A stretch of 64,000 nt of DNA, taken from assembly GCA_020845875.1 (NCBI GenBank), contig JADLEY010000009.1, positions 3,907 to 67,906 of the forward strand, written 5' to 3'. The notes beneath the pieces were generated by a model. The model had not been told where the DNA came from, did not search any database, and worked only from the letters and a program-made list of their open reading frames with translations. A program made the position numbers and the translations under genes. This DNA comes from Candidatus Nomurabacteria bacterium. GTDB taxonomy: Bacteria; Patescibacteriota; Minisyncoccia; Phycocordibacterales; UBA9973. Of this stretch, positions 1 to 49,451 are shown one piece after another. The number at the start of each line of letters is the position of its first letter. Within the stretch, counting starts at the first letter, position 1.

Positions 1-1592
1 CAGGATCTCTTAACTTCACTGGAGCATTTACCGTCAGTGGTAATGCTGGGACGGTAGGGCAGGTGCTGACTTCTGCTGGAGGGGGTGCACCAACATGGAA
101 CAATATTACTAACGTTGTTTCTTTTAATCAGGCAACTCAATCTCTTTATTCTTCCACACCTATTCTTGCAGCAAGCTCTGGGAATTCAAACGATATATTT
201 CTTGGCCCTTTTGCAGGAATCGGTGCTTCTGGTACTCACGAATCAGTTTTTATAGGGAATTCTGCCGGATATGGTGCTGCTACTGCGAATGACTCCATAT
301 TCTTTGGAGATCACGCAGGATATAATGCAACTTTAGCTTCTAATTCTCAATTCATTGGTGAAGGTGCAGGATGGGGAGCATCTGGTGCGGATAATTCTAA
401 TTTTTTTGGATATTATGCGGGATCAGGAGCAATAAATTCAAGATATTCTAACTTTTTTGGACAATCTGCAGGAAGGGATTCTAACGCCTATAACTCTAAT
501 TTTTTTGGATATTATGCAGGAAATAGTGCTACTGGAGCACAGCACTCCAATTTCTTTGGAGAATATGCTGGTAATGCTGCCACCAACGCCTCATACTCCA
601 ACCTCTTTGGATATCGTGCAGGAGCACTTTTCATTGGTAACAATATAGGTTCCAACAACATCATCATCGGCACCAATATCTCTCTTCCCAACGGAACAGC
701 GAATGCCATTAACATAGGAGGAGTACTTTTTGGCACCAACACTCAAGATAATGTTTTAATGGGAGATCCCTTCATCACTCCACAGACTTCTGGAAAAATC
801 GGCATCGCTACCATCCCTACCACCTATACCTTAGAGGTCGGAAACAGTTCTGTGGGTGGCATCATCGCCTCCTTTACCAACAGTGCAAACACTTGTACTA
901 TCGACACGTCACTCTCTTGTACTTCAGATGAAAGACTTAAAACCAACATCGAAGATCTAGACGATAATACACTCGATAAACTTCTTGACGTGAGAACAGT
1001 GAGATTCAGCTGGCTCAAAGATCCTTCTGCACCAGAACAAATAGGCTTCCTTGCTCAAGACCTCAAACAATACTTCCCAGAGATTGTCTCCAAAGGTCCC
1101 AATGACTACTACCAAGTCAACTACGCGGGTATGACCCCCATCCTCACCAAAGCAATACAAGAGCTTGATATACGGGTCTCCGACATTTCGTCGCTGACCG
1201 AAGACTCGACTTTTGCTGATACGCTTCGCGCATGGCTTGCCAATGCGGGCAATCGTGTCACGCGCATCTTTACTGGCGAAGTGTGTCTCTCTGATGAGGA
1301 GGGGAGCACCTGTCTCAATCGCGGTGAATTGATGCAGCTCAAGACACTCCTTGGAACGCAGGGTGACAATACACTCGTTGATGACGAGATAGGAGAAGAT
1401 GTCCCAGAAACGTCAGAGGAATCAATGGTGCTGTCAGGGGACACTGACGGCACAGCGGGAGAACAGGCTCCCGAAGAAGGTGTTTCAGAAAATATACCAA
1501 CCTCACAAGAAGAGCCTGCCACCGTCTCTCCTGTGTCTGCCGAAGAGGCTGCCCCAGCACCAGAAGCTTCTGTACCGGCAGATACTGTGTAG
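1..1592 (+). CDS. Repeat-rich secreted/surface protein with a C-terminal peptidase-S74-like intramolecular chaperone (autoproteolytic) domain. It is 5'-partial: the frame is open back to the window edge.
   Basis: Gly/Ala/Asn-rich ~16-aa repeats (NFFGYYAG, SNFFGEYAG). C-terminal 'CTSDERLKTNIEDL...IGFLAQDL...VNYAGMTPILTKAIQEL' matches the S-D-x-R-x-K self-cleaving chaperone domain of phage tail-spike/endosialidase proteins. It is a paralog of the 16971-19577 protein. Confidence 0.6.
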   Translation, partial: GSLNFTGAFTVSGNAGTVGQVLTSAGGGAPTWNNITNVVSFNQATQSLYSSTPILAASSGNSNDIFLGPFAGIGASGTHESVFIGNSAGYGAATANDSIFFGDHAGYNATLASNSQFIGEGAGWGASGADNSNFFGYYAGSGAINSRYSNFFGQSAGRDSNAYNSNFFGYYAGNSATGAQHSNFFGEYAGNAATNASYSNLFGYRAGALFIGNNIGSNNIIIGTNISLPNGTANAINIGGVLFGTNTQDNVLMGDPFITPQTSGKIGIATIPTTYTLEVGNSSVGGIIASFTNSANTCTIDTSLSCTSDERLKTNIEDLDDNTLDKLLDVRTVRFSWLKDPSAPEQIGFLAQDLKQYFPEIVSKGPNDYYQVNYAGMTPILTKAIQELDIRVSDISSLTEDSTFADTLRAWLANAGNRVTRIFTGEVCLSDEEGSTCLNRGELMQLKTLLGTQGDNTLVDDEIGEDVPETSEESMVLSGDTDGTAGEQAPEEGVSENIPTSQEEPATVSPVSAEEAAPAPEASVPADTV

Positions 1593-1632
1593 TCCGCCAA
1601 AAAGAATTGTGTTAGTATGAGGCTACTTTTGC

Positions 1633-1705
1633 GCCGAAGTAGCTCAGTTGGTAGAGCGACGCATTCGTAACGCGTAGGTCGCGAGTTCAATCCTCGCCTT
1701 CGGCT
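1633..1705 (+). tRNA. tRNA-Thr (anticodon CGT)
   Basis: Cloverleaf read by hand. Acceptor gccgaag/cttcggc, D-arm gctc-agttggta-gagc, anticodon stem acgca/cgcgt with loop ttCGTaa, T-arm gcgag-ttcaatc-ctcgc, discriminator t, CCA encoded. Confidence 0.8.
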
Positions 1706-1707
1706 CC

Positions 1708-2601
1708 ATGGTTTCTATGCATGATAAAGATACAATCAAAGAACGCATCACGCATCTCGAAGCAGCAATGATGGAGCCTACGTTTTGGAACGATGTGCCG
1801 CTCGCACAGGCGCAAATAAGGGAATTGCAGGAGCTCAAAGATGCACTCGAAGGGCTAGGGAAGTATGACAAATGCAATGCGGTGATTACTATCTTTGCAG
1901 GAGCAGGCGGTGACGACGCCGAAGATTTTGCTGCAATGCTGTTGCGTATGTACATGAAGTATATCGATCAACAAGGATGGCGCATCGACTTCCTCCACGA
2001 GCACACCAACGACAACGGTGGGTATCGCAATGTACTGTTTGAAGTGCAAGGCAAGAAAGCATACGGCACACTCAAAGGTGAGTCGGGTGTACATCGTCTT
2101 GTGCGCGTCTCGCCGTTTAATTCCAATGCAAAGCGCCACACATCGTTTGCAATGGTGGAAGTCATCCCAGAATTTTCAGCAGCGGATACCGAAATTGTTA
2201 TTCCTGAGAGTGAACTCGAAGTAACCTTTGCTCGCGCAGGGGGTCCTGGAGGGCAAAATGTTAACAAACGAGAGACAGCAGTGCGTATGGTACATGTCCC
2301 TACAGGACTTGCAGTACATGTCGCTACCGAACGCAGTCAGGAACACAATCGGCAGCATGCACTAGAGTTGCTTAAAGGTAAGCTCTATAAACGAAAGGAA
2401 GAAGAGCGTCGTGCTGCAGAACAGGGAATGCAGATTTCCAAGACGACAGATATTGAATGGGGTAACCAGATTCGTTCTTATGTACTCCATCCATATAAGA
2501 TGATCAAAGATCACCGTACGGGTGTTGAAACAGGAGCTGTGGATAAAGTACTAGAAGATGGAGAGATAGGCATATTTATCGAGGCGGAATCAAAACTGTA
2601 G
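1708..2601 (+). CDS. prfB: Peptide chain release factor 2. The likely start is the internal Met at ~1717, because the annotated start abuts the tRNA.
   Basis: SPF motif ([16 protein letters not shown]) and GGQ motif ([22 protein letters not shown]). It is a single uninterrupted ORF, so no +1 frameshift site is present. Confidence 0.9.
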
Positions 2602-2616
2602 TCCCGGTGTACGGAC

Positions 2617-3318
2617 GTGATATACTATGACCACGTTGTTATGATTACATTTACGAATGTCTCAAAAGTATATCCCAATGGAGCGATCGCATTGGAAGGG
2701 GTGACGCTCACAATAGAAAAAGGGGAGTTTGTTACAATGATTGGCCTCTCTGGTGCCGGAAAGACTACGCTCACCAAACTCCTTTTAGGGGAGGAACAGC
2801 CGACTGAAGGAGACGTGCTCTTTGAAGGGAGAGATGTAACGACTTTTTCTGTGAAAGAGCTCACCGATCTGCGTCGTCGCATCGGGCCTATTTTCCAGGA
2901 TTTCAGATTACTTGCACATAAGACCGCTTATGAAAACATTTCGTGTGCGATGGAGGCGGCAGGGAAGACTGACGAAGAGATTATTTCCGATGTTCCTCAT
3001 GTCCTGCAGCTCGTCGATTTGCAAGACCGTATGTACCATTTCCCTAGTCAGCTTTCAGGAGGAGAAAAGCAGCGTCTTGCGATTGCGCGTGCCATTATCA
3101 ATCAACCCGAAGTACTTCTTGCTGACGAACCAACGGGTAATCTCGATTCAGTAAATACCGAGGAGGTGCTCAATATATTGAGAAAAATTAATGATCTCGG
3201 AACCACTGTTATCCTTGCGACACATGATCCGCAGCTCATAAATGGGCTCGGGGGACGTCTCATTACTGTCGAGAAGGGGAAGATTGTCAAAGACGAACAG
3301 CATCGTCGTAAGATATAA
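2617..3318 (+). CDS. ftsE: Cell-division ABC ATPase FtsE
   Basis: Walker A GLSGAGKTT, ABC signature LSGGEKQRLAIARA, Walker B LLADEPTGNLD. Immediately followed by ftsX. Confidence 0.9.
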   Translation: MIYYDHVVMITFTNVSKVYPNGAIALEGVTLTIEKGEFVTMIGLSGAGKTTLTKLLLGEEQPTEGDVLFEGRDVTTFSVKELTDLRRRIGPIFQDFRLLAHKTAYENISCAMEAAGKTDEEIISDVPHVLQLVDLQDRMYHFPSQLSGGEKQRLAIARAIINQPEVLLADEPTGNLDSVNTEEVLNILRKINDLGTTVILATHDPQLINGLGGRLITVEKGKIVKDEQHRRKI

Positions 3319-3326
3319 TAAAGCAT

Positions 3327-4250
3327 ATGTTTTGGACTACTTTCAAACGAGTATTGGAATCAGGATGGATTAATTTCCGCAGAAACGGCCTAGTTTCTTA
3401 TGCAGCTATCCTTGTCACGACGATTACGCTTACGGTGATTACAGGACTTTTTCTTCTCAACGCCATACTACATACTACTATCGACAGTATTCAAAAGCAG
3501 GTAGATATTACTGTTTATTTTACGGTAGATGCGCAAGAAGAACGTATTCTTTCGCTCAAACAAACGCTCGAGTCGCTTCCTGAGGTCGCTGCGGTAGGGT
3601 ACATTTCTGCAGATGACGAAGTGCTCGCTTTTCGCGAGCGTCACTCAGACGACTACCTTACTCTGCAGGCGCTCGAAGAGCTCGGCAACAACCCATTTGG
3701 AGGCAATCTCCGTATTAGTGCGCACGACTCTACGCAGTATGAATCTATCGTGAATGTCCTCGAAGGCGACAGTCAGGTAGCGCGTGATAATGCAGAAATC
3801 ATTGATCGCATCAATTTTGCACAAAATAAAGTCGTCATCGATCGACTCAATCGGCTCATTGCGGACTCTCGGGATATCGGACTTATCGTCACCATTATCC
3901 TTTCGTTTATCTCAGTGATTATTATGTTTACGACAGTGCGACTGACTATCTATGTCGTCCATGAAGAAATTGGTATTATGCGTCTCGTGGGTGCTTCAAA
4001 TTCGTATATTAGACTCCCGTTCATTGTCGAAGGAATACTTTACGGTTTCTTTGCATGGACCCTTACTTTCCTTCTTTTTCTCCCTATCACCTATCTGCTC
4101 GGACGATATGCTACTGATGCGCTTGGTCTCAATCTCTACACTTACTACCTCTCACATTTCTTCTCTATTGCTGGAGTAGTGCTTCTCATCGGACTCTTTT
4201 TAGGAGCGCTCTCAAGTGCGTTTGCTGTCCGCAAGTATCTCCGTTCGTAG
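3327..4250 (+). CDS. ftsX: Cell-division permease FtsX
   Basis: N-terminal TM helix, periplasmic domain and C-terminal 3-TM FtsX-like permease region. Adjacent to ftsE. Confidence 0.85.
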   Translation: MFWTTFKRVLESGWINFRRNGLVSYAAILVTTITLTVITGLFLLNAILHTTIDSIQKQVDITVYFTVDAQEERILSLKQTLESLPEVAAVGYISADDEVLAFRERHSDDYLTLQALEELGNNPFGGNLRISAHDSTQYESIVNVLEGDSQVARDNAEIIDRINFAQNKVVIDRLNRLIADSRDIGLIVTIILSFISVIIMFTTVRLTIYVVHEEIGIMRLVGASNSYIRLPFIVEGILYGFFAWTLTFLLFLPITYLLGRYATDALGLNLYTYYLSHFFSIAGVVLLIGLFLGALSSAFAVRKYLRS

Positions 4251-4283
4251 TCGTTGATTTTTTGTTGAAAAAACGTTATTCTG

Positions 4284-4316
4284 ACACACGCTTGTAAAGG
4301 CGTGTGTTCTGTTTCG
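4284..4316 (+). terminator. Hairpin acacacgc-ttgtaaag-gcgtgtgt followed by a T-rich tract, downstream of ftsX
   Basis: Perfect 8-bp inverted repeat seen in the sequence. Confidence 0.45.
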
Positions 4317-4336
4317 AAATTGTTCGTAGATAGCGC

Positions 4337-4407
4337 TGCCAGATCGTCTAATGGTAGGACTACAGATTCTGGCTCTGTGTATCTAGGTTCGAGTCCTAGT
4401 CTGGCAG
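4337..4407 (+). tRNA. tRNA-Gln (anticodon CTG)
   Basis: Acceptor tgccaga/tctggca (U1:A72), D-arm gtc-taatggtag-gac, anticodon stem acaga/tctgt with loop ttCTGgc, T-arm ctagg-ttcgagt-cctag. CCA not encoded. Confidence 0.8.
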
Positions 4408-4481
4408 CACTGCATGGGAACAATCTTGAGACAGCAAACGAAAACCCCTTCCAAAAGCGGAAGGGGTAAGGCAAAAAGTTA

Positions 4482-5138
4482 CTATGATAGAACACTTTCC
4501 ATCATCTTGCGCAAGTTCTTCAATCCCAGGTACATCCTAGTCTGTATTGTGTTGATAGAAATGGTACTGTCAATGCATTCAGTAATTTTTCGAAAAGTAC
4601 ACCTCTTAAAAAGATGAAGGTAGATCACTTCACGTTGTTCTGCAGGGATTCTTTCTAATAATTCTGGAATAACACGCAGGCTCTCTCTACGGATGAACGT
4701 TTCTTCAGGGCCTTGTTCAATGTAGATAGGACAGATAGAGTGGGTAAGGAGATCAATATCTTCTGAGGCATAATACCAAGTGGATTTCTTTTTGAAACCC
4801 CCTCTTACATGGTCAATCGCCAGGTTGCACACAATTCTTCTTATCCATGCTCGAAATGCATGTTTGCTGTCCATATGATATTTTCCTTCTTTAATAGCAA
4901 TAATTGCCTTGATAAAGGCTTCTTGAAGAATATCCTCAGTAAGGTGTAAGTCTTGTACAATAGGGAATACCACCGAAGCTAAGTAGGGTTGGTGTCGTTT
5001 AACAATGACGTTAAATGCTTCAGAATTTCCTGCTGCAAATTGCAAAACAAGAGTGTAATCATCGAGGGAATAAAGGTTTTTGTTCATATTTATTTTTTTT
5101 AAAAGAATGAAAGAAATGTAGTGGTAACGAGCCACCAA
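4482..5138 (-). CDS. ECF-type RNA polymerase sigma factor (sigma-70 regions 2 and 4). Probable true start at the internal MNKNLY...
   Basis: Region 2.2-like RAWIRRIVCNLAIDHVR and region 4 HTH REVIYLHLF...ISINTIQTRMYLGLKNLRK. Confidence 0.7.
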   Translation of the reverse strand: MVARYHYISFILLKKINMNKNLYSLDDYTLVLQFAAGNSEAFNVIVKRHQPYLASVVFPIVQDLHLTEDILQEAFIKAIIAIKEGKYHMDSKHAFRAWIRRIVCNLAIDHVRGGFKKKSTWYYASEDIDLLTHSICPIYIEQGPEETFIRRESLRVIPELLERIPAEQREVIYLHLFKRCTFRKITECIDSTISINTIQTRMYLGLKNLRKMMESVLS

Positions 5139-5227
5139 TACTCTGTCGACGCTATAACATAAAATTTTATAAAAGTCCAGTATCTCTTTTCTTAAAGAGA
5201 AAGAAGGGGTGGTATACTAGAAAGCAT

Positions 5228-5941
5228 ATGAAGAAAACACCTGTTATTGTTACCGTCCTTACGCTTCTTATTATTGGACTTCTTTTTATTCAGTCACGCC
5301 ATGATGCTACGAAAGCAACACGACCGATTGTTGCTGTTTTTACTGATCAACAGACGCAGCAAGTAGCGACCGTTTCTTTTGACAATACTACTCAGACTGC
5401 GACGCTCGATGGTGCAGGGTATCAAGGACTCGTATTTACACAAGACATATCAGCCTCTGGTGCACGATATATAAATAATGAAAACAATCTCGTGCTCTGG
5501 AATAAAGGAAATGATATTACCCTGTACGACTCTACTGGGAAATCACTCTTCAATGGAACGAGTGCTGCTGCAGATACGACAGGTACATCAACTGTGAAAG
5601 CGCTCTCTGAATCAGTATGGGTATGGCAGAGTACTGTGCTTGCCAATGGAGATACTATTGCTCCACGAGAAGCAGGAGCATTCGCTCTTACTTTTGGCAC
5701 TGACGGGCGTATCTCAGGGACAACAGATTGTAATAGTTTCTCTGGTTCATACTCAATAGGAGAGGGACAATCGCTTGCTTTTGGTACTTTTGCTGCAACG
5801 AAAATGTTTTGTATGAATTCTCAGGAAGAGGTCTTTACTCAAGATGTCTCGAGGAGTGTCGGATACTCTTTTTCTGATGCAGACTCCCTCGTGCTTGTTC
5901 TTGGAGGAGACGCTGGGGTAATGACTTTTGCAAAGCGCTAG
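5228..5941 (+). CDS. Membrane-anchored/secreted protein with an MliC-like N-terminal half and a META/HslJ-like C-terminal half
   Basis: N-terminal TM/signal MKKTPVIVTVLTLLIIGLLF. SGARYINNENNLVLWNKG resembles the MliC lysozyme-inhibitor fold. CNSFSGSYSIGEGQSLAFGTFAATKMFC resembles DUF306/META. Confidence 0.45.
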   Translation: MKKTPVIVTVLTLLIIGLLFIQSRHDATKATRPIVAVFTDQQTQQVATVSFDNTTQTATLDGAGYQGLVFTQDISASGARYINNENNLVLWNKGNDITLYDSTGKSLFNGTSAAADTTGTSTVKALSESVWVWQSTVLANGDTIAPREAGAFALTFGTDGRISGTTDCNSFSGSYSIGEGQSLAFGTFAATKMFCMNSQEEVFTQDVSRSVGYSFSDADSLVLVLGGDAGVMTFAKR

Positions 5942-16286: not shown

Positions 16287-16970
16287 ATGCGATTTCATTT
16301 TCTCACCATTTTTCCGGAGATCGTCGAGAGCTATCTCTCTGAGGCAATGCTGGCACGAGCCAGTGACAAGAGGCTCGCAAAGTTTGTTGTGCGCAATATT
16401 CGCGACTATACCAAGGACAAACACAAAAAGACCGACGACCGTCCGTATGGTGGTGGTCCAGGGATGGTGATGACGGCGCAACCGATACTTACCGCGTACG
16501 ATTCACTCAAACTCAATTTGCAGAAAAGGAAACGGCAAAAGGTAGTAATGCTCTCGCCAAGCGGTATACTTTTTACCAATGCTCTCGCCAAGCAATTCGC
16601 CAAGAGGTATGATGACGTGGTGTTTATCTGTGGCAGATACGAAGGGGTAGATGACCGCGTACGCAAGATTCTGAAGACATCAGAATACAGCATTGGAAGC
16701 TTCGTTCTCACTGGTGGAGAGTTGCCCGCGCTCGTTATGACCGATGCAATCGTGCGGCAGATTCCAGGAGTACTTGGTAAAAGTGAAAGTCTTGAAGAAA
16801 CGCGCACAGCAAGTCCACATGTCTATACTCGACCAGAAGTACTCGTCTACAAAAAGAAAAAGTACAACGTTCCTGAGATACTCATTGGCGGTAATCACAA
16901 ACAGATAGAGCTTTGGCGCGCTTCGCAACAAAAGAAATCAGAGAAAAAGCCACAATCTGTTGAAAACTAA
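16287..16970 (+). CDS. trmD: tRNA (guanine37-N1)-methyltransferase
   Basis: MRFHFLTIFPEIV…CGRYEGVDDRV…TGGELPA, the SPOUT TrmD fold. Confidence 0.9.
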   Translation: MRFHFLTIFPEIVESYLSEAMLARASDKRLAKFVVRNIRDYTKDKHKKTDDRPYGGGPGMVMTAQPILTAYDSLKLNLQKRKRQKVVMLSPSGILFTNALAKQFAKRYDDVVFICGRYEGVDDRVRKILKTSEYSIGSFVLTGGELPALVMTDAIVRQIPGVLGKSESLEETRTASPHVYTRPEVLVYKKKKYNVPEILIGGNHKQIELWRASQQKKSEKKPQSVEN

Positions 16971-19577
16971 TTGTATAATTTTTTACTAACCTCTATAATG
17001 TCTGTTATGAGAAGAAAGACTCATTCATTCATATACATTCCTCTTTCGGTAGTTATCGGATTGTTTCTTGCTTATAGCATCTCTGCTTATGCCGACAACC
17101 CACCTTCTCCTTTCACTCCAGCAGACAACATCCAAGACCCCACATGTCTTCCTAGCGATTCCAATTGCTATGTCTATACTCCTAACGCATCATGGGGAAC
17201 ACTCACCGGTACTCTCACTGACCAAACTGATCTTAGTAATCTTTTAGATGACAAACAGGCTGCTCTTGTCTCAGGAACAAATATCAAGACCATCAACGGC
17301 ACATCTCTTCTCGGTAGTGGAGATATTAGTATTGTAAGTTCACCGATTAGTGTAAATGCCTATGGGACATTGTACTCTGAAGCAACTGGTGCAGGTCAAG
17401 GAAGTGAATATTCTAATGCAAATAATGTTATCCTCGGAAAAAATGCTGGTGTTGGAGCAACCTATGCTGAGGGTTCAGTTTTTTTAGGTGAATCTGCAGG
17501 ACAGAATGTTTCTTCTATATCATGGTCTTTACCTTCTGTGATGATTGGTAGATATGCAGGGTCCAATGGAGTATCAACTCCTGGATCAGTCTTTTTAGGA
17601 ACAGAAGCAGGTCAAAGCGCCACAAATGCCGGAAGGGCACAGTTCATTGGAACTTCTGCTGGTGCTGGAGCAACCAATGCTTCAGCCTCCAATTTCTTTG
17701 GTTATTATGCTGGCTTTTTAGCAGTAAATGCTCAATATTCTACTTTTATTGGAAGATACTCTGGCTCTTACGCCAGTAATGCCTCCCAATCTATACTTAT
17801 TGGAGAACGTGTAGGAAACAATGCTGGGAGTTACTTTGATGCTCTCGGCGCTGGTATCGGAAGCAATAATATCATTATTGGTACCAATATTTCACTTCCA
17901 GATAGTACAGCAAACGCAATAAATATTGGCGGCGTTCTTTTCGGTACAGGAACAAATGCTGATGTAGGAACATTTAATCCTTTTACTCCTCCTATTAAAA
18001 CCACAATGAGTGCTGGGAAAATTGGTATCGGTGTCCTTCCTGCATCACTAACCGCTACTCTTAACACCACGGGCACTACTTCACAAGCTCCTTTTCGTAT
18101 TGTTTCTACTACTGCTCCAACCTCACCAAACAACGGTGATTTATGGATAGCTTCAGATCATCTTTATACAAGACTAGGAGGTGTGAGTTATCAATTAGAC
18201 GGTGGAGGAATCTCTTTACAGCACAATTATTCTCCCAATTCAAGTCAGACAGTGCTCAATCTTATCGCAGGAGCAGGTATTACGCTTACTGAGTATGGAT
18301 TTGGTAATTTAGAAATCAGCAATAGTTCTATTGCTGTGAGTTCTACAACTGATGGGTTATATTCTTCTGGAGTAGGGACGATCGATCCAAACACGGCAGG
18401 TGTAATAAGTTTGGGTTTCGCTAGTACGGGTAATTATTCTACCATGGGTCAAAACTCCATTTATATGGGTTATTTCGTTTGGAATGGAGCCGCTTCTTTT
18501 AGCGGTGAATCGGATGTATACATCGGAGAGAGGGCAGGAACTGTTCTAGATGGGGGGATGGTTTTCAGTGGTGGTGGAAACGTTGTCATCGGGAGAAACG
18601 CTGGTTCTGATTCTGATATAAATGCAGGATTACTTGGAGGGCTGAACTACTCTACGGACTCTATATTTATCGGTAACGGCGCAGGATCGTATGCTGGAGG
18701 AACTGCTTCTATTGCTATAGGAAAAGATACGCACAATGATGGTACTACCAACTCCATCGCCCTCGGCCAGGGAGCTACCAACACTGCTTCCAACCAAATG
18801 ATGATCGGCTCTTCCTCATACCCCATCAACGACCTCGTCATCAATGGAAGCGGATTTACCACCTGTACGGTGAACACAGGGACAGGGGCAGGTATCAGCT
18901 GTTCGTCAGATGAACGACTCAAAACAAACATCGAAGACCTCTCTTCAGTATTAGACACTCTCTCTCAGGTACGTACCATCACCTACAATTGGAACATTGC
19001 CCCAGAAGGAACAAAAAACATTGGTTTCCTTGCTCAAGACTTACAACAGCATTTCCCACAGCTTGTCTCCACCGACCACAATGGTTACCTCTCCGTTAAC
19101 TACGCTGGCATGACTCCTATCCTTACAAAGGCAATACAGGAGATAAATCTCAAGGTCGCGCCACTTCCTACATTCGAAGATGCCACTCTTGCTGTTCGTA
19201 TTTCAGATTTCTTGAAGGGTATTGCAGAAGGTATTGCTCGCATTGGCAGAGTAGAGACAGATACTGTGCAGACCGGTACGCTTTGTATCGGTAGTACTTG
19301 TCTTACAGAATCCCAGATCAAGGATATTCTCAATGCAGCAGGAACACAATCAAGTCCTGTTACACCAGAATCAGAGGAAATACCCAGTGATGTAGATGTA
19401 GATGTTGAGACGCCGTCACAACCAGAATCGACATCAGAACCAGAAGAGGTACCCAGTGATGTAGATGTAGATGTTGAGACGCCTTCAGAGGAGTTTGAGG
19501 AGATTGAGCAGGCGCCGTCAGGAAGCACTGACGGCGCAGTCCTGGAGACTACTATTGAGGATCAGCCTCCTGTCTAA
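16971..19577 (+). CDS. Large secreted repeat protein with a C-terminal peptidase-S74-like intramolecular chaperone domain, paralogous to the 1-1592 protein
   Basis: Signal/TM at the N-terminus. NFFGYYAG-type Gly/Asn repeats. 'CSSDERLKTNIEDL...IGFLAQDLQQHFPQLV...VNYAGMTPILTKAIQEI' C-terminal domain. A C-terminal tandem acidic repeat (EEIPSDVDVDVETPS ×2). Confidence 0.65.
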   Translation: MYNFLLTSIMSVMRRKTHSFIYIPLSVVIGLFLAYSISAYADNPPSPFTPADNIQDPTCLPSDSNCYVYTPNASWGTLTGTLTDQTDLSNLLDDKQAALVSGTNIKTINGTSLLGSGDISIVSSPISVNAYGTLYSEATGAGQGSEYSNANNVILGKNAGVGATYAEGSVFLGESAGQNVSSISWSLPSVMIGRYAGSNGVSTPGSVFLGTEAGQSATNAGRAQFIGTSAGAGATNASASNFFGYYAGFLAVNAQYSTFIGRYSGSYASNASQSILIGERVGNNAGSYFDALGAGIGSNNIIIGTNISLPDSTANAINIGGVLFGTGTNADVGTFNPFTPPIKTTMSAGKIGIGVLPASLTATLNTTGTTSQAPFRIVSTTAPTSPNNGDLWIASDHLYTRLGGVSYQLDGGGISLQHNYSPNSSQTVLNLIAGAGITLTEYGFGNLEISNSSIAVSSTTDGLYSSGVGTIDPNTAGVISLGFASTGNYSTMGQNSIYMGYFVWNGAASFSGESDVYIGERAGTVLDGGMVFSGGGNVVIGRNAGSDSDINAGLLGGLNYSTDSIFIGNGAGSYAGGTASIAIGKDTHNDGTTNSIALGQGATNTASNQMMIGSSSYPINDLVINGSGFTTCTVNTGTGAGISCSSDERLKTNIEDLSSVLDTLSQVRTITYNWNIAPEGTKNIGFLAQDLQQHFPQLVSTDHNGYLSVNYAGMTPILTKAIQEINLKVAPLPTFEDATLAVRISDFLKGIAEGIARIGRVETDTVQTGTLCIGSTCLTESQIKDILNAAGTQSSPVTPESEEIPSDVDVDVETPSQPESTSEPEEVPSDVDVDVETPSEEFEEIEQAPSGSTDGAVLETTIEDQPPV

Positions 19578-19624: not shown

Positions 19625-19653
19625 TTGACTCTATTTATTAGAGAGGTTATACT
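19625..19653 (+). promoter_or_regulatory. Sigma-70-like promoter TTGACT-N17-TATACT upstream of rpoB
   Basis: Hexamers and spacing seen directly. Confidence 0.5.
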
Positions 19654-23026: not shown

Positions 23027-26000
23027 ATGAAAACACTCGACACTACCAATTTTGATTCCATCACACTCAAACTCGCAAGCCCCGATCGCATTCGCGAGTG
23101 GAGCTATGGAGAAGTCACCAAGCCGGAAACTATCAACTACCGTACCGGCCGCTCTGAGCGCGGCGGTCTCTTTGACGAGCGCATCTTCGGTCCTGAAAAA
23201 GACTACGAATGCTACTGTGGGAAATACAAGCGCATTCGCTACGCAGGCATCACCTGTGAAAAGTGTGGCGTAGAAGTCACCAAAGCAATCGTTCGTCGTG
23301 AGCGCATGGGACATATCGAGCTCGCGTCTCCTGTCGCACACATCTGGTTCCTCCGTAGCGTACCGAGCCGCATGTCGACTCTTCTCGGTATTTCTCTTAC
23401 TGATCTCGAGAAGGTAGTGTACTTCGCTGGGTATATCATTACTGCAGTGCACGAAGAAGAAAAGACTCGCATTATTGCTGAGCTTGATGTGGAGTTTAAA
23501 AACAAACTCAAAAATGCTGCTGATGAAGATACTCGCGAAAAACTCCGCACACTTCTGTCCAATACCAAAAAAGAAATTGCAGAGATTCACATCGGAAAAG
23601 TATTGACTGAAATTGCATATCATCACTATTCGCTTAAATATGGAAGCGCATTTGAAGCAAATATCGGCGCAGAAGCAATCTACAGCCTCTTCAAGAATAT
23701 GAATCTTGAAGCACTCAAAGATGCTACAGAAAAAGCACTTGAAAAAGCAGGTGCCGCAGATCGCGAAAAGCTCCAAAAACGCCTATCGCTTATCCGTTCG
23801 ATGCTCTACGCAAATATTCGTCCAGAATGGATGCTCCTGACAGCTGTTCCTGTGATTCCTCCGGGACTGCGTCCGATGGTGGCGCTCGAAGGCGGTCGTC
23901 ATGCAACATCAGATGTCAACGACCTCTATCGTCGCGTCATAAACCGCAATAATCGTCTCAAGAAGCTCAAAGAAATTGGCGCCCCTGATGTGATTCTTCG
24001 CAATGAGAAGCGTATTCTACAGGAAGCAGTCGATGCACTCATCGACAACTCTGCAGCAGGGCAAGACGCTCCAGCGATGTCTTCGGCACAGCGCCGCGCA
24101 CTCAAGAGTCTCTCTGACAGCCTTAAGAGTAAACAGGGTCTCTTCCGTCAAAACCTCCTTGGTAAACGTGTCGACTACTCTGGTCGTTCCGTGATTGTTG
24201 TCGGTCCAAACCTCCGTCTCAATCAGTGTGGGCTTCCCAAGCATATGGCTCTCGAACTCTTTCGTCCGTTTGTTATCTCAAAGGTCATCGAGCGTGAGCT
24301 CGCGTACAACATCCGTGGTGCAAATAAACTCATCGAAGACGGCATCCCAGAAGTCTGGGCAATTCTCGAAGAAGTGATCAAAGGCAAGTATGTGCTTCTC
24401 AACCGCGCACCAACACTTCACCGACTCGGTATTCAGGGATTCATGCCAGTCCTCATTGAAGGAAATGCGATTCAGGTACACCCACTCGTCTGCCCTGCGT
24501 TTAATGCTGACTTCGACGGTGACCAGATGGGAGTCTATGTTCCGCTCTCTGATACGGCACAGGCAGAAGCGGCAACACTCATCTCTGCTGATAAAAATAT
24601 CTTGAAGCCTCAAAATGGTGATCCGATTGTTTCATCAAAAATGTTGGATATCGTCCTCGGTTGCTACTGGATGACTTCACAGATTGAAGGAGAAAAAGGA
24701 GAGGGAATGTATTTTGCAAGTCCCAACGAAGCGATCACTGCGACTGACTTCGGTGCAGTATCTTATCGCGCAAAGATTTCTGTATTGGGTACTGAGAGTG
24801 AAAAGTATGCATACTTCGAAAAGAAGCCGTTTGAAACAACTGTTGGACGACTCCTTTTCAATGCGATCATGCCAAGCGATTTTCCGTATATCAACGAAGA
24901 AATCACTTCGAAAAAGATGGTAGTCATTGTAGATAACCTCATTGTGAAGTATGGCGTTGATCGTGTTGCGCCGATCCTCGATCGCATGAAATCGTTTGGG
25001 TATAAGTACGCGACTATTTCTGGAACAACGTGGGGTATCGACAACGTGATTGTTCCGAAAGAGAAAAAAGAAATCGTACAGAAATATCGCGCACAGGAAG
25101 CAGAAGTCAAAGAACAGTTCCAAGACGGTCTTCTCTCAGAAGAAGAGCGCTATCAGAAAGTCATCACTATTTGGGAAAAAGCAAAGAGTGAAATTGAAAA
25201 GATTCTTCCAGAAAGTCTCGAAAAGCACGGCTCTGTGCACGATATGATTGTATCGGGCGCTCGAGGATCTATCTCAAATGTGACGCAGATGGTAGGAATG
25301 AAAGGACTCATCCAAAACACTACTGGTCGCACTATCGACTTCCCAATTATTCCATCGTTCAAGGAAGGACTCTCTCCGATCGAATACTTCATCACCACTC
25401 ACGGTTCGCGTAAGGGTCTCGCCGACACAGCGCTCAACACTGCTCGCGCCGGCTATCTCACTCGTCGTCTCGTCGATGTGGCACAGGATTTGGTGGTGAC
25501 CGAAGATGATTGTGGTACCAAAGCAATGAAAATCATGACTCGGGAAAATATTTCTGGTCTTGAGATCCCGCTTGCAAAAAATATTCGCGGTCGTGTCCTC
25601 GCAAAAGAAATAACTGATGAAAAAGGAGTGCTTCTCTTTAAAAAGGGCCATCTCGTTAGTAAGGAGGATGCTGCGCTTATCGAGAAAAGTGGGGTGACCG
25701 AAGTCGCGGTACGTACTCCAATGACCTGTAAGACGATCTACGGTATCTGTCGCATGTGTTACGGTCTTGACCTCGGACGCAATCGTCTCGTTGAGCGTGG
25801 AGAGTCTGTCGGTATCGTTGCAGCCCAAGCTATCGGTGAGCCGGGTACTCAGCTCACACTTCGTACCTTCCACGCCGGTGGCGTGGCAGGTGTGGATATC
25901 ACCCAAGGTCTTCCTCGTGTCGAAGAAATCTTTGAATGTCGTGAGGTGAAAAATCCTGCAGTGGTAGCAAAGTATTCCGGTACTGTTGCTGAAATTAAAA

Positions 26001-30103: not shown

Positions 30104-30865
30104 TTATAGAAGCGAATCAATCACTTGCTTCAGATAGGCAGCGTCTACTGCTCCGGGGATGACTATTTGCTCGCCGGTCTTTTGGTTGACGGCGATACTG
30201 AAGGGAGTACCTTTTGCGCCGATAGCCTGTGCTTCGTCTGCACCCTTCTGGACACGGTCGTCGGTGCTTGCACGAGCAACGCAGGTCTTCATAGATGCTG
30301 TGTTTATGCCTTGCTGGCCGGCAAAGGTAAAGAGGGCTTCGTTGCTCTTCTCATTGGGGCTAAGGGTGACCCCCATGATTTGGTCGAGGTATGGCCAAAA
30401 GGCACTGTTGCCACCGAGCTCGTATGCGCAAGCGAGGGTGAGTGCCTCAGCGCGTGCGTTGGGGTGGAGAGAGTCGAGCGGGAAGTAGCGGTATGCCCAG
30501 GCGACCTTGTCGCCATAATTTGTCATTGTGGTCTGCATTGTCTCATGGAAACGCGCACAAAATGGACAGTCGCTGTCTGAGTATTCAATCACTAGCACAT
30601 CAGCGCTCGGGTTGCCTCTCACAGGGTCTTCTGCACGAAGTTTCGCAACATCAGCTGGGACGCTAGTCGTCTCTTGCCCTTGCGGCGTGGCAGCAGAAGG
30701 AGCTGCAGCAGGAGAATTGCCCTTTGGTCCGAAGGCCACGAGAATTGCCACACCGATAATTGCTGCTGCCGTTACGATGGCTGCAGGCAGTCCGATACTG
30801 GACTTTTTTTCGGAAGAACGCGTCTCTCCCGCTGGCGTTTCAGGGGTCTGTGTTGTGTATTGCAT
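30104..30865 (-). CDS. Membrane-anchored DsbA-family thiol:disulfide oxidoreductase
   Basis: N-terminal TM, thioredoxin-fold CPFC active site (DSDCPFCARFH). Confidence 0.65.
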   Translation of the reverse strand: MQYTTQTPETPAGETRSSEKKSSIGLPAAIVTAAAIIGVAILVAFGPKGNSPAAAPSAATPQGQETTSVPADVAKLRAEDPVRGNPSADVLVIEYSDSDCPFCARFHETMQTTMTNYGDKVAWAYRYFPLDSLHPNARAEALTLACAYELGGNSAFWPYLDQIMGVTLSPNEKSNEALFTFAGQQGINTASMKTCVARASTDDRVQKGADEAQAIGAKGTPFSIAVNQKTGEQIVIPGAVDAAYLKQVIDSLL

Positions 30866-48800: not shown

Positions 48801-48836
48801 TATACTCAAACTATGCTATCGCGCAAAATGAGTATA
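48801..48836. repeat. 36-bp palindrome copy U (TATACTCA-aactatGCTATCGCgcaaaa-TGAGTATA) overlapping the start codon(s) of the wHTH::Cas2-like gene
   Basis: Perfect 8-bp outer inverted arms. A second direct copy is at 49338-49373. Confidence 0.6.
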
Positions 48837-49334
48837 GAAGAGAAAATTATGAGATTTCTGTACGACAGAAAGTATTTGCACGCTCTCGCATTTAGTACCC
48901 TGCTACAAGAACCTTCTTTTTCTTCATACAAACCACAATCCATACGAAACGCGCTCACTAAGCTTTCGAAACAAGAACTAGTGCGCACCGGTGCCGACGG
49001 TATCATGCTCCACACAAAGGGGAGAGCGTATATAGAACAGAGGATGGCGCGGCTTCAACTATTTGATTCGCCGTTTACCAAGAATGCCCCGAAAAATCTG
49101 CTCGTGCTTTTTGATATCCCCGAAGATTGCAAGGCTGAGCGGGAGTGGTTTCGCCGGCAGCTCCGCGAGTTTGGCTACGACATGGTGCAAAAGAGTGTAT
49201 GGCTCGGACCGTCGCCATTGCCGAAAGAATTTGTGGAATATGTAAAAACTATCGGATTGCGCGATTGCATCAAAACATTTCGCCTCGCCCGCAATCAGCA
49301 GAGTGAACTGAAAAACAGCAAGATGAAAAAATAA
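48813..49334 (+). CDS. Winged-helix (PaaX/MarR-like) N-terminal domain fused to a Cas2/VapD-like ferredoxin-fold C-terminal domain; candidate adaptation/regulatory component
   Basis: C-terminal 'NLLVLFDIPEDCKAEREWFRRQLREFGYDMVQKSVWLGP…IKTFRL' has the Cas2 beta1(…YDV/FDI…)-alpha1-beta2(…RVQ.SVF…) pattern. The N-terminal ~90 aa look like a wHTH. The gene lies in the cas neighbourhood and is flanked by palindromes. Confidence 0.5.
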   Translation: MLSRKMSIEEKIMRFLYDRKYLHALAFSTLLQEPSFSSYKPQSIRNALTKLSKQELVRTGADGIMLHTKGRAYIEQRMARLQLFDSPFTKNAPKNLLVLFDIPEDCKAEREWFRRQLREFGYDMVQKSVWLGPSPLPKEFVEYVKTIGLRDCIKTFRLARNQQSELKNSKMKK

Positions 49335-49337
49335 CTA

Positions 49338-49373
49338 TATACTCATTCTGTGCTATCGCACAATTTGAGTATA
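49338..49373. repeat. 36-bp palindrome copy D (TATACTCA-ttctGTGCTATCGCACaatt-TGAGTATA) immediately after the wHTH::Cas2-like stop
   Basis: Same outer arms and GCTATCGC core as copy U. Confidence 0.6.
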
Positions 49374-49406
49374 TGCATGTTTCTGGTGTGTGAGAATTAT
49401 TGAGTA

Positions 49407-49439
49407 ATAAAAAACTGCGCTGGGTTGTGCCTAGTGCAG
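49407..49439 (-). terminator. Hairpin terminator H2 (degenerate copy of H1) ending the 77-aa minus-strand gene
   Basis: ctgcgctggg-ttgtg-cctagtgcag with aaaaaa/tttttt flanks; shares the aaaactgcg…cgcagt frame with H1. Confidence 0.5.
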
Positions 49440-49451
49440 TAGTAGTTTCAT

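Follow-up and report, generated by a model that had tools for sequence, protein, structure and literature searches.

Two genes of a Candidatus Nomurabacteria bacterium (Patescibacteria/CPR) encode fibre proteins with a Peptidase_S74 intramolecular chaperone domain; both genes are almost certainly chromosomal genes of the cell and not parts of a virion. The proteins are probably exported and matured by their S74 domain, and their most likely role is the recognition of, or attachment to, another cell.

Two paralogous fibre genes among housekeeping genes

The analysed stretch of DNA, henceforth called the window, comprises 64 kb and contains the two fibre genes:

1..1592, + strand, fibre gene 1 (paralog 1), 5' end cut by the window edge
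17007..19577, + strand, fibre gene 2, 856 aa from the ATG at 17007, the likely real start

Fibre gene 2 lies in an intact open reading frame at 16971-19577 (+) with a mechanical start at TTG 16971 and an alternative ATG at 16998. Residues are numbered according to the 856-aa protein, whose Ser634 corresponds to Ser646 in 868-aa numbering and to Ser637 in 859-aa numbering. This protein is identical to NCBI protein P0001 ([quoted passage not shown]), and a search of NCBIfam assigned no family to it. The full length of the protein of fibre gene 1 was estimated at ~616 aa from the copy of a relative (P0035), which supplied the missing 87 N-terminal residues; at these sizes, the proteins are not "giant", as they had been called in an earlier note on this DNA. 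Their description as paralogs was borne out by protein comparison, the S74 domain together with the tail being 38% identical and the repeat module 41%. Fibre gene 1 has the canonical family architecture, without the insertion of fibre gene 2. The two paralogs lie within 17 kb of each other, other CPR genomes also carry two or more, and the family comprised 420 cluster representatives at E <= 1e-30.

The genes might instead be phage tail fibre genes, whether as the remnant of a prophage, as a moron, or through contamination of the assembly, and would then not be functional genes of the cell. The NCBI name points in this direction, as do PHROG tail-fibre families matching the C-terminal part and hundreds of viral proteins matching by fold via the chaperone domain. 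However, the PHROG matches stop ~138 residues before the C-terminus, and no phage record had more than 35% coverage of the protein or more than 40% identity. Annotation of the open reading frames (ORFs) identified every large ORF in the 64 kb other than the fibre genes as housekeeping, as the earlier note had read it, with prfB, ftsEX, RNase J, RNase R, khpA, and trmD upstream of fibre gene 2 and rpoB, rpoC, dnaG, rpoD, tsf, rpsB, mreBC, tgt, uvrABC, ddl, leuS, and murJ downstream. When the wider context was checked for a prophage, no phage genes, integrase, or att-like context were found within the window, the order trmD/fibre/rpoB was identical in a second, independent assembly, and the distant homologs P0005 and P0025 were located among other housekeeping genes on Paceibacterota contigs of 0.6-0.8 Mb. 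The chromosomal housekeeping neighbours in two assemblies uphold the view that the fibres are host-encoded. Both ORFs are moreover intact, the N-terminus and the S74 domain are under strong purifying selection (strain comparison), and a signal peptide and disulfide-type cysteine pairs (see below) would not be expected in fibres that assemble in the cytoplasm. That these are phage tail fibre genes is highly improbable on this evidence.

Architecture of the fibre proteins

Along fibre gene 2 and its paralog, the following features were delineated:

17007..17093, + strand, putative Sec-type signal peptide MRRKTHSFIYIPLSVVIGLFLAYSISAYA, predicted cut after A-Y-A (hydrophobicity heuristic)
17094..17177, + strand, family-conserved N-terminal motif PP..(Y/F).P..(T/N)..DP.C.P....C.V (consensus of alignments A1 and A2)
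17193..17330, + strand, phage-fibre-like motif WGTLTGTLTDQTDL...GTNIKTINGTSLLGSGDISI (PHROG matches from residue 93; short-fragment matches)
17415..17867, + strand, repeat module 1, ~8 units of 17 residues (beta-solenoid model, pLDDT above 90)
17862..17954, + strand, highly conserved module SNNIIIGTNISLP...AINIGGVLFGTGT that terminates the solenoid (near-invariant columns in A1 and A2)
18039..18782, + strand, lineage-specific insertion, aa 345-592 (occupancy profile, paralog comparison)
18177..18341, + strand, hypervariable 55-codon cassette, aa 391-445 (strain comparison)
18864..18902, + strand, conserved cysteine pair C620/C632, forming a loop directly before the predicted cleavage site (G-T-C-x-I-N...C-S-S-D)
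18906..19154, + strand, Peptidase_S74 intramolecular chaperone domain of the 856-aa protein (Pfam, fold, and profile matches)
19182..19343, + strand, post-chaperone module of helix, beta-hairpin with C760-x4-C765-x-T, and helix (family-wide conservation)
19344..19574, + strand, disordered acidic, proline-rich tail (sequence, model)
180..647, + strand, repeat module of paralog 1, at least 9 units of 17 residues (pLDDT 88-97)
924..1181, + strand, Peptidase_S74 domain of paralog 1 (Ser308 codon 924-926, Lys313 codon 939-941)
1209..1589, + strand, post-chaperone module of paralog 1 (helix, C428...C437 hairpin, helix) and disordered acidic tail

The C-terminal domain is a Peptidase_S74 intramolecular chaperone by sequence, catalytic residues, and fold. 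PF13884 (Peptidase_S74; gathering score 22 bits) matched the 856-aa protein with 54.9 bits (E 1.1e-14) and the paralog with 61 bits (E 1.4e-16), profile positions 1-57 of 58 being covered. A family profile retrieved the PDB chains 8jov (E 4.6e-16), 6f45 (1.4e-14), 7dc3 (3.4e-9), and 3gud (9.4e-6), and the model of the domain, with a pLDDT of ~90 in two independent models, had its best Foldseek matches in 7dc3, 3gud, and 3gw6. Both proteins carry the catalytic motif S-D-x-x-x-K at the start of the domain, one within C-S-S-D-E-R-L-K and the other within C-T-S-D-E-R-L-K (catalytic codons of the 856-aa protein: Ser634 at 18906-18908, Lys639 at 18921-18923), and S-D-E-R-L-K aligned to the processing site at the "SDERHK" N-terminus of 3gud as well as to the MyRF site. 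In a six-frame scan of the 64-kb window, exactly two such S-D-E-R-L-K motifs were found, at nt 18906 and nt 924. The S, D, K, G, A, and Q of the domain were invariant in 70 and in 40 homologs. The chaperone identity and the shared motif had both been proposed in the earlier note and were confirmed by these searches. Both fibre proteins are expected to trimerise and to cleave themselves.

Contrary to what had been assumed, the S74 domain is not the C-terminal end of the proteins; ~140 more residues follow, forming a helix, a Cys hairpin (C-x4-C in the 856-aa protein, C-x8-C in paralog 1), a second helix, and a disordered acidic tail. The conserved post-chaperone module is without counterpart in characterised S74 proteins. 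The tail of the 856-aa protein contains an internal duplication (E-[IV]-P-S-D-V-D-V-D-V-E-T-P-S, present twice) and neither a transmembrane segment nor an LPxTG motif.

The shaft is built from repeats with a period of 17 residues (S-N-F-x-G-x-x-A-G-x-x-A-T-N-A-x-x). Instead of the "dozens" suggested earlier, each protein has some 8-14 units (the 856-aa protein carries ~8 clear and ~6 degenerate ones, the partial paralog a minimum of 9), and up to 32 were counted in some homologs. Structure prediction of the repeat region as a monomer, for which a beta-helix had been anticipated, gave a single-chain beta-solenoid with pLDDT above 90 for repeat module 1; in both proteins, model confidence was low for the N-terminal region and for the residues immediately preceding S74. 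The insertion of fibre gene 2 (aa 345-592), from which ~90% of the family members are free, contains a beta-hairpin motif of the fibre type (SPNNGDLWIASDHLYTRLGG) as well as a variable core and a second, degenerate repeat module. A Pfam search of the part preceding S74 returned no match at E <= 1. A solenoid of this kind could also carry a polysaccharide-degrading site, in which case the proteins would be secreted tailspike-like enzymes by which the small cell gains access to, or feeds on, a host envelope or biofilm matrix. We regard this as improbable.

At the N-terminus, the signal peptide was called by a hydrophobicity heuristic and not by SignalP. A hydrophobic N-terminal segment was also present in 47 of the 113 top homologs starting with Met, and 40 of these 47 carry S74 as well. 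All six cysteines of the 856-aa protein fall into three closely spaced, family-conserved pairs, i.e., C47/C54 within the N-terminal motif, C620/C632 before the cleavage site, and the pair of the post-chaperone hairpin; a DsbA-like thioredoxin gene is located within the window at 30104-30865. Because of the putative signal peptide and the three conserved cysteine pairs, these sequences indicate that the proteins are probably exported, unlike virion fibres, and the chains would pass through Sec and form disulfides. Surface retention of the mature fibre is assumed, since a motif scan of the mature part detected neither LPxTG nor lipobox and no recognisable wall or membrane anchor. The N-terminal 135 aa used as a query returned only short fragments with a common fibre motif.

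Variation between strains and possible role

Variation was assessed from one strain pair (the window versus strain Ga0082021_1009103) and one fragment. Within the repeats, omega was 0.70 in fibre gene 2 and 0.80 in paralog 1, compared to 0.10 in paralog 1 outside the repeats and 0.03-0.10 in equally diverged housekeeping tracts of the same strain pair, and dN was 0 in the S74 domain and tail. The block aa 401-440 of the cassette was 18% identical between the window and this otherwise near-identical strain, the core cassette being unalignable, and a third, more distant relative has the window-type cassette. When the invariant C-terminal 256 aa were used as a query against metagenome contigs, only three distant fragments were retrieved. 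The two genomes are mosaic, with dS of 0.21 in the fibre tract, 0.25 in the prfB-ftsX tract, and 0.26 in the rpoC tract. Because the high dS is matched in prfB-ftsX and rpoC, these equally diverged tracts rule out the fibre gene as a unique divergence hotspot, and only the raised dN/dS, together with the cassette swap, is specific to the fibres. Relaxed constraint would explain the raised dN/dS in the repeats equally well as diversifying selection. The variable shaft and cassette fit exposure to a changing partner. Hypermutation of the DGR type was rejected, as the substitution spectrum was dominated by all four transitions and not adenine-specific, and no reverse transcriptase was present among the ORFs of the window.

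By analogy with known systems, the fibres may act in adhesion, and a host-attachment device is plausible. To our knowledge, no host is known for Nomurabacteria. In the mechanism we propose, each fibre protein would be made with a Sec signal peptide and cross the membrane unfolded. Outside the cell, the C-terminal Peptidase_S74 chaperone would gather three chains and template the folding of the preceding region, after which the invariant Ser/Lys of S-D-E-R-L-K would cut the chain directly before Ser634 (856-aa protein) and thereby remove a 223-residue fragment in which the chaperone is joined to the Cys-hairpin module and the acidic tail. The mature fibre of ~600 residues would comprise a disulfide-containing conserved N-terminal end and a beta-solenoid shaft of 17-residue repeats, with an extra variable module in the larger paralog, and would stay on or near the cell surface.

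Exported, S74-matured fibres could also serve purposes other than host attachment, as a structural or protective coat or as a receptor used by the cell's own phages, and the strain variation would then reflect phage escape or weak constraint on a repetitive shaft. A high omega that is confined to the solenoid repeats is equally typical of phage-receptor or antigen variation, as is a swapped cassette, and a Pfam search identified no binding domain at the mature tip. The same repeats occur in homologs that lack a signal peptide and have phage-type N-termini (Mtd_N, PTL_trimer), which suggests that phages in these communities use related modules; two homologs without a signal peptide, P0016 and P0037, have ORFans and one phage-type glycosyltransferase match as neighbours and may lie on phage contigs. 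Against this reading, cell-cell recognition is the role of the best characterised S74 fibres encoded by cells (PMC10769870), S74 cleavage in phage proteins leaves a binding surface exposed at the C-terminus thus created, and the maintenance of a two-copy family in a genome far smaller than 1 Mb points to an active role. A coat or phage receptor is therefore rather unlikely, and recognition of, or attachment to, another cell is preferred.

Studies of cultured Patescibacteria suggest that type IV pili and a small number of adhesins serve in host contact (PMC10633639, PMC11665869, PMC12206443). The fibre family provides concrete candidates for how Patescibacteria find and hold their hosts, being predicted to be exported, carrying an S74 domain as in phage receptor-binding proteins, occurring in at least two copies in genomes under 1 Mb, and having a shaft that varies between strains. 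Should their role be ordinary, they would still illustrate cleanly the reuse of a phage folding device by cells. A bolder proposal, which is possible though doubtful, is that S74-matured solenoid fibres with a signal peptide are a main host-recognition system of Paceibacteria/Nomurabacteria-type CPR, with shafts and cassettes reshuffled through recombination between strains, and possibly with their phages, so as to track host surfaces, and with the post-chaperone Cys-hairpin and acidic tail as a new functional module. Such a module might, for example, keep the chaperone, or the trimer as it forms, on the cell surface until the cut is made.

Comparison with known systems

Among chaperone-bearing phage fibres, the K1F endosialidase endoNF (3gw6), the GA-1 neck appendage (3gud), S16 gp37 (6f45), and the tail fibre 8jov were compared. 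The Nomurabacteria proteins share with them the chaperone/protease domain by sequence and fold, the aligned catalytic S-D-x-R-x-K, and the motifs GTNIKTINGxSLLGSG and GDLW...LY hairpin. Unlike phage fibres, they have no phage genome around them, a Sec-like signal peptide (by heuristic), conserved cysteine pairs, and a Cys-hairpin module with an acidic tail after the chaperone, whereas phage profiles end within ~25 positions of the matched region. MyRF (7dc3 ICA) is a eukaryotic membrane-bound transcription factor in which cleavage releases the N-terminal part; there the domain is followed by a transmembrane anchor, whereas no transmembrane segment follows it in the Nomurabacteria fibres.

YadA-type autotransporters differ in having a C-terminal beta-barrel anchor, in place of which S74 and a disordered tail are found here (no YadA_anchor Pfam match), so that trimerisation would come from the S74 domain. 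The repeat period is 17 residues compared to about 14 in the YadA head, and PF05658 (YadA-like head) did not match the 856-aa protein even at E = 1; homolog P0031 reached 24.9 bits at a cut-off of 25 bits, and one viral protein among the structural neighbours bears the annotation YadA-like head.

As a precedent, the S74 fibres of Bdellovibrio bacteriovorus among the MAT ("mosaic adhesive trimer") proteins come closest. Bd3182, a member of the S74 subgroup, is encoded on the chromosome, carries a signal peptide, cleaves itself at S782 within an SDxxxK motif, and is located on the cell surface, and its fibre family is implicated in prey handling; in MAT fibres, the signal peptide is followed by a conserved, beta-rich N-domain of ~130 aa (PMC10769870). 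The corresponding region of the window proteins has a conserved motif of its own (DP.C.P....C.V) and was modelled with low confidence. The Nomurabacteria genes are likewise chromosomal with several paralogs per genome, and encode proteins in which an N-terminal signal peptide (by heuristic) is followed by a long, beta-rich shaft and, towards the C-terminus, an S74 domain with SDxxxK; the organism's way of life, like that of Bdellovibrio, is based on contact with other bacteria. For Bd3182, self-cleavage, the trimer structure, and the surface location were shown, whereas they are predicted for the fibres described here. The MAT capping loop V-G-[GN]-pi-x-x-P-x-x-x-L near the S74 domain in its strict form occurred in 0 of 68 S74-bearing homologs and is absent from both window proteins, loose variants being IGSSSYPINDL and IGIATIPTTYTL. 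Further differences are the single-chain solenoid shaft of 17-residue repeats, the ~140 extra residues after the chaperone, and the cell itself, a monoderm CPR bacterium. Because the Bdellovibrio MAT proteins are an experimentally characterised precedent (PMC10769870), the idea of such fibres is less novel than the earlier note implied. The published list of MAT-like proteins in other lineages has no CPR entry (PMC10769870), and no paper on such S74 fibres in Patescibacteria was found in the literature; the fibre type demonstrated in Bdellovibrio is hereby extended to another lineage, the CPR/Nomurabacteria.

Fibre proteins and their S74 chaperone domain

The two fibre genes are located as follows:

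16971-19577 (+): larger fibre gene, intact; the gene-caller start at ATG 17007 yields 856 aa
1-1592 (+): paralog 1, running off the window start; paralogous to the 856-aa protein by sequence identity

A six-frame scan of the 64 kb returned the motif S-D-x-x-x-K...G-x-x-A-Q exactly twice, i.e., in these two genes. The 856-aa protein is identical to the NCBI entry 'tail fiber domain-containing protein [Candidatus Nomurabacteria bacterium]' on an 81-kb contig. For paralog 1, a full length of about 616 aa was taken from P0035, its copy in a near-identical strain (JGI contig Ga0082021_1009103), which adds the missing 87 residues including the signal peptide. That the two proteins are paralogs with an S74-type (Peptidase_S74 intramolecular chaperone/protease) domain, as proposed in the earlier note, was confirmed by an identity of 38% across the last 230 residues and of 41% across the repeat module, and by matches of both to Pfam PF13884 (cut-off 22 bits) at 54.9 bits (E 1.1e-14; 856-aa protein) and 61 bits (E 1.4e-16; paralog 1). 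Additionally, a profile of 70 homologs matched four chains of solved structure (E 4.6e-16 to 9.4e-6): the tail fibre 8jov, gp37 of phage S16 (6f45), the ICA domain of MyRF (7dc3), and the neck appendage chaperone of phage GA-1 (3gud). In the profile alignment, S-D-E-R-L-K was placed at the processing site of the solved chains, of which 3gud starts with 'SDERHK', the new N-terminus after cleavage; two alignments, with 70 and with 40 homologs, showed no variation in the Ser, Asp, and Lys of the motif or in the downstream G..AQ. Because sequence, catalytic residues, and fold agree, the C-terminal domain is a bona fide intramolecular chaperone/protease domain, for which cleavage itself is predicted.

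Consensus architecture of the family, drawn from homolog alignments
Element 1: signal peptide, N-terminal
Element 2: short motif PP..Y.PG.TLDP.C.P....C.V
Element 3: 17-residue repeats S-N-F-x-G-x-x-A-G-x-x-A-T-N-A-x-x, 2-32 copies across the family
Element 4: nearly invariant module NNIIIGTNISLP...INIGGVLFGTGT
Element 5: GKIGIG...P..YTL.VGN
Element 6: Cys-loop G-T-C-x-I-N...C-S-S-D, directly before S74
Element 7: S74 domain
Element 8: helix, C-x4-C-x-T hairpin, helix; Cys spacing varies (C-x8-C in paralog 1)
Element 9: disordered acidic, proline-rich tail, C-terminal

Paralog 1 conforms to this plan, and in the 856-aa protein 250 further residues are inserted (aa 345-592), as in only about 10% of family members; they comprise a hairpin motif of the fibre type, a core that varies, and a second, degenerate repeat module. 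At 856 and about 616 aa, the proteins are smaller than the 'giant' ones described before; instead of 'dozens' of repeats, about 8 clear and 6 degenerate units were counted in the 856-aa protein and 9 or more in partial paralog 1, with a period of strictly 17 residues in both, and the S74 domain is not the protein end, as about 140 residues come after it. This post-chaperone module belongs to a large family (420 representatives at E <= 1e-30 in an exhaustive search of 1.84 billion representatives); among the top 150, the best-matching stretch mostly comprised query residues ~565-830 and was located at the C-terminus of the matched protein. Relatives in species-representative genomes, retrieved with one peptide pattern and hence not a census, were mostly Patescibacteria (Paceibacteria, Nomurabacteria, Minisyncoccia, and MAGs labelled Saccharibacteria), the remainder being some Bacteroidota and a few others.

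The N-terminus of the 856-aa protein (MRRKTHSFIYIPLSVVIGLFLAYSISAYA/DN) shows the n-, h-, and c-regions of a Sec signal peptide. An N-terminal Sec-like segment together with S74 was present in 40 of the 120 best homologs, 31 of which had the DP.C.P motif, too. All six cysteines fall into three tight pairs (C47/C54, C620/C632, C760/C765), each conserved in the family consensus; judged from sequence, this pairing would be expected for extracytoplasmic disulfides, unlike in fibres assembled in the cytoplasm. A DsbA-like gene lies within the window. Neither LPxTG, lipobox, nor C-terminal transmembrane segment was found in the 856-aa protein.

Genomic setting

Every sizeable ORF in the window was surveyed, and the fibre genes were found among the following genes:

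Upstream: prfB, ftsE, ftsX, ECF-type sigma factor, RNase J, solute-binding protein, RNase R, khpA, trmD
Downstream, part 1: rpoB, rpoC, dnaG, rpoD
Downstream, part 2: tsf, rpsB, class II tRNA synthetase, mreBC, tgt, uvrB, uvrA, uvrC, ddl, leuS, murJ

No integrase, terminase, portal, capsid, or tail gene was detected among these ORFs. In a different assembly, the 129-kb JGI contig, the larger fibre gene is likewise situated between trmD and rpoB, and the counterpart of paralog 1 at the matching place before prfB. Distant homologs have other housekeeping neighbours: one, on a contig of 804 kb, adjoins hpf and fmt, and the other has tuf and ribosomal protein genes in its vicinity, on a Paceibacterota contig of 614 kb that additionally codes for a Lipase_GDSL-S74 protein. 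Matches in phage records are mostly confined to the chaperone. The rival reading of the fibre genes as a phage remnant is opposed by the lack of phage genes in the 64 kb and of any phage record resembling the whole protein (among 50,697 records, none covered more than 35% of the 856-aa protein and none exceeded 40% identity). A prophage explanation is effectively excluded. The earlier interpretation thus holds up on the two points by which it was to be judged, the match of the C-terminal domain to S74 profiles (by Pfam, PDB-chain profile, and fold) and a housekeeping context without prophage, on which the second assembly agrees.

The region upstream of the fibre start codon (16961-16999) overlaps the trmD stop and contains an extended -10-like TGTATAAT at 16972-16979 and a second TATAAT at 16994-16999, just upstream of the start; no Shine-Dalgarno-like sequence was evident directly upstream of the start codon. 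The interval from the fibre gene to rpoB showed no terminator-like site, but a promoter-like TTGACT-17-TATACT is present at 19625-19653.

Several homologs (P0016 on contig L047, P0023/P0028, P0037 on contig L048) keep the 17-residue repeats, have no signal peptide, and start with phage-type N-termini (Mtd_N; 'MAFRTKLDFSNNRQ'; PTL_trimer). Their contigs are rich in ORFans, and one of these homologs has a neighbouring gene of 3,943 aa without Pfam match; they possibly represent phages of CPR bacteria sharing shaft modules. The Lipase_GDSL + Peptidase_S74 protein of the Paceibacterota genome with homolog P0025 (L003) has 1,496 aa; in CPR genomes, S74 is therefore joined to enzymes and not only to fibres. 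Beside the fibre gene, L003 codes for 1,395-aa and 733-aa proteins without Pfam domain and for PG_binding_1/Flg_new proteins (L003 18449-19498 and L003 3651-7838).

Elsewhere in the window, a compact CRISPR-Cas-like locus of low GC (0.41) was observed at 48813-52154:

48813-49334: cas2-like gene with PaaX_M domain
49796-51124: TnpB-family RNA-guided nuclease, 442 aa (NCBIfam NF040570, E 9e-22, below its cut-off; no Pfam match)
51173-51904: short Cas1, 243 aa, matching only the C-terminal two-thirds of the model
after Cas1: small array with the 39-nt repeat GTACCCAACCACCCAATCTCTTTAATGGAGGTTTTGGGT in three copies, preceded by a degenerate one, spacers 31-33 nt

The locus resembles a miniature type V (Cas12f/Cas14-like) system, here in a CPR bacterium. 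In the region 1633-2601, a gene with PCRF + RF-1 domains encodes a release factor of only 297 aa; its Pfam match begins at PCRF model position 68, and the first base of its ORF is the last one of a tRNA-Thr gene (1633-1708). At 294 aa, the copy in the relative is just as short, and the gene product is either an N-terminally shortened release factor or reflects an unusual start or frameshift arrangement.

Strain-level variation

Between the window and the JGI contig, which constitute one strain pair, seven neighbouring genes (4,871 codons) had a dS of 0.008 and an omega of 0.065. The larger fibre gene differed at 282 of 2,576 aligned nucleotide positions, all within 17043-19022. It is not a unique divergence hotspot, as equally diverged tracts exist in rpoC (23614-24127; dS 0.26, omega 0.03; 30 differences in 0.5 kb, almost all synonymous) and in prfB-ftsE-ftsX-sigma (window ~1600-5600; dS ~0.25, omega 0.105); either recombination has made the two genomes mosaic, or strains are mixed in the assemblies. 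The fibre-specific feature is protein-level change at comparable dS: omega was 0.70 in repeat module 1 of the 856-aa protein, 0.80 in the paralog 1 repeats, and 0.10-0.13 in the N-terminal and pre-S74 parts of both fibres, with dN = 0 in the S74 domain and tail. A core of 55 codons (aa 391-445) was essentially unalignable between the strains, and P0241, a third, more distant fragment, has the window-type cassette; therefore, at least two cassette types circulate. A DGR as source of the variation was excluded, the substitution spectrum being without adenine bias. The pattern fits a strictly conserved folding device combined with a shaft that is exposed at the surface and either under diversifying selection or weakly constrained, two options that one strain pair does not separate.

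The relative's copy of paralog 1 (L043 6001-7864) is interrupted within the S74 domain: its reading frame breaks off after V-N-Y-A-G-M-T-P, with a separate ORF of 90 aa downstream, indicating either a pseudogene or a sequencing error.

Proposed maturation, role, and known fibres

In the proposed model, the fibre would be exported by Sec, and outside the membrane the S74 domain would template trimerisation and folding. Self-cleavage before Ser634 (Ser646 in the numbering of the earlier note) would then release a 223-residue fragment, leaving a fibre of ~600 residues whose new C-terminal end and variable shaft would point outward. The post-export steps are drawn from established knowledge of the S74 family: trimerisation precedes Ser/Lys-dependent cleavage in endosialidase, T5 and GA-1 fibres, MyRF, and Bdellovibrio Bd3182 (PMC10769870). 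We regard the structural and maturation part of this model as highly probable. Recognition of another cell is the most likely role, and attachment is put forward tentatively; rival readings are a non-adhesive coat or phage-receptor role and a tailspike-like enzyme.

No paper on S74, endosialidase, tail-fibre, or MAT-type ('mosaic adhesive trimer') fibres in Patescibacteria/CPR was found by full-text search, and two key Patescibacteria papers do not mention such fibres; database annotation is already generic, and the fibres are apparently undescribed for Patescibacteria. They involve no new principle; for an uncultured group, they provide a concrete candidate for host recognition that can be tested.

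The closest precedent, the Bdellovibrio MAT family, comprises 21 fibres that are chromosomally encoded and carry signal peptides. In 13 of them, S74 with SDxxxK forms the end of the protein, and S782 cleavage and surface or prey localisation have been demonstrated for the family (PMC10769870). MAT-like proteins are tabulated for other predators and symbionts, including Micavibrio, Uabimicrobium, and an Omnitrophica bacterium, and for no CPR lineage (PMC10769870). In contrast to MAT, the CPR fibre family lacks the strict capping-loop motif, builds its shaft from another repeat type, and has its own N-terminal motif and a conserved post-chaperone module. The window proteins are a new lineage-specific case of cell-encoded fibres matured by a phage S74 chaperone.
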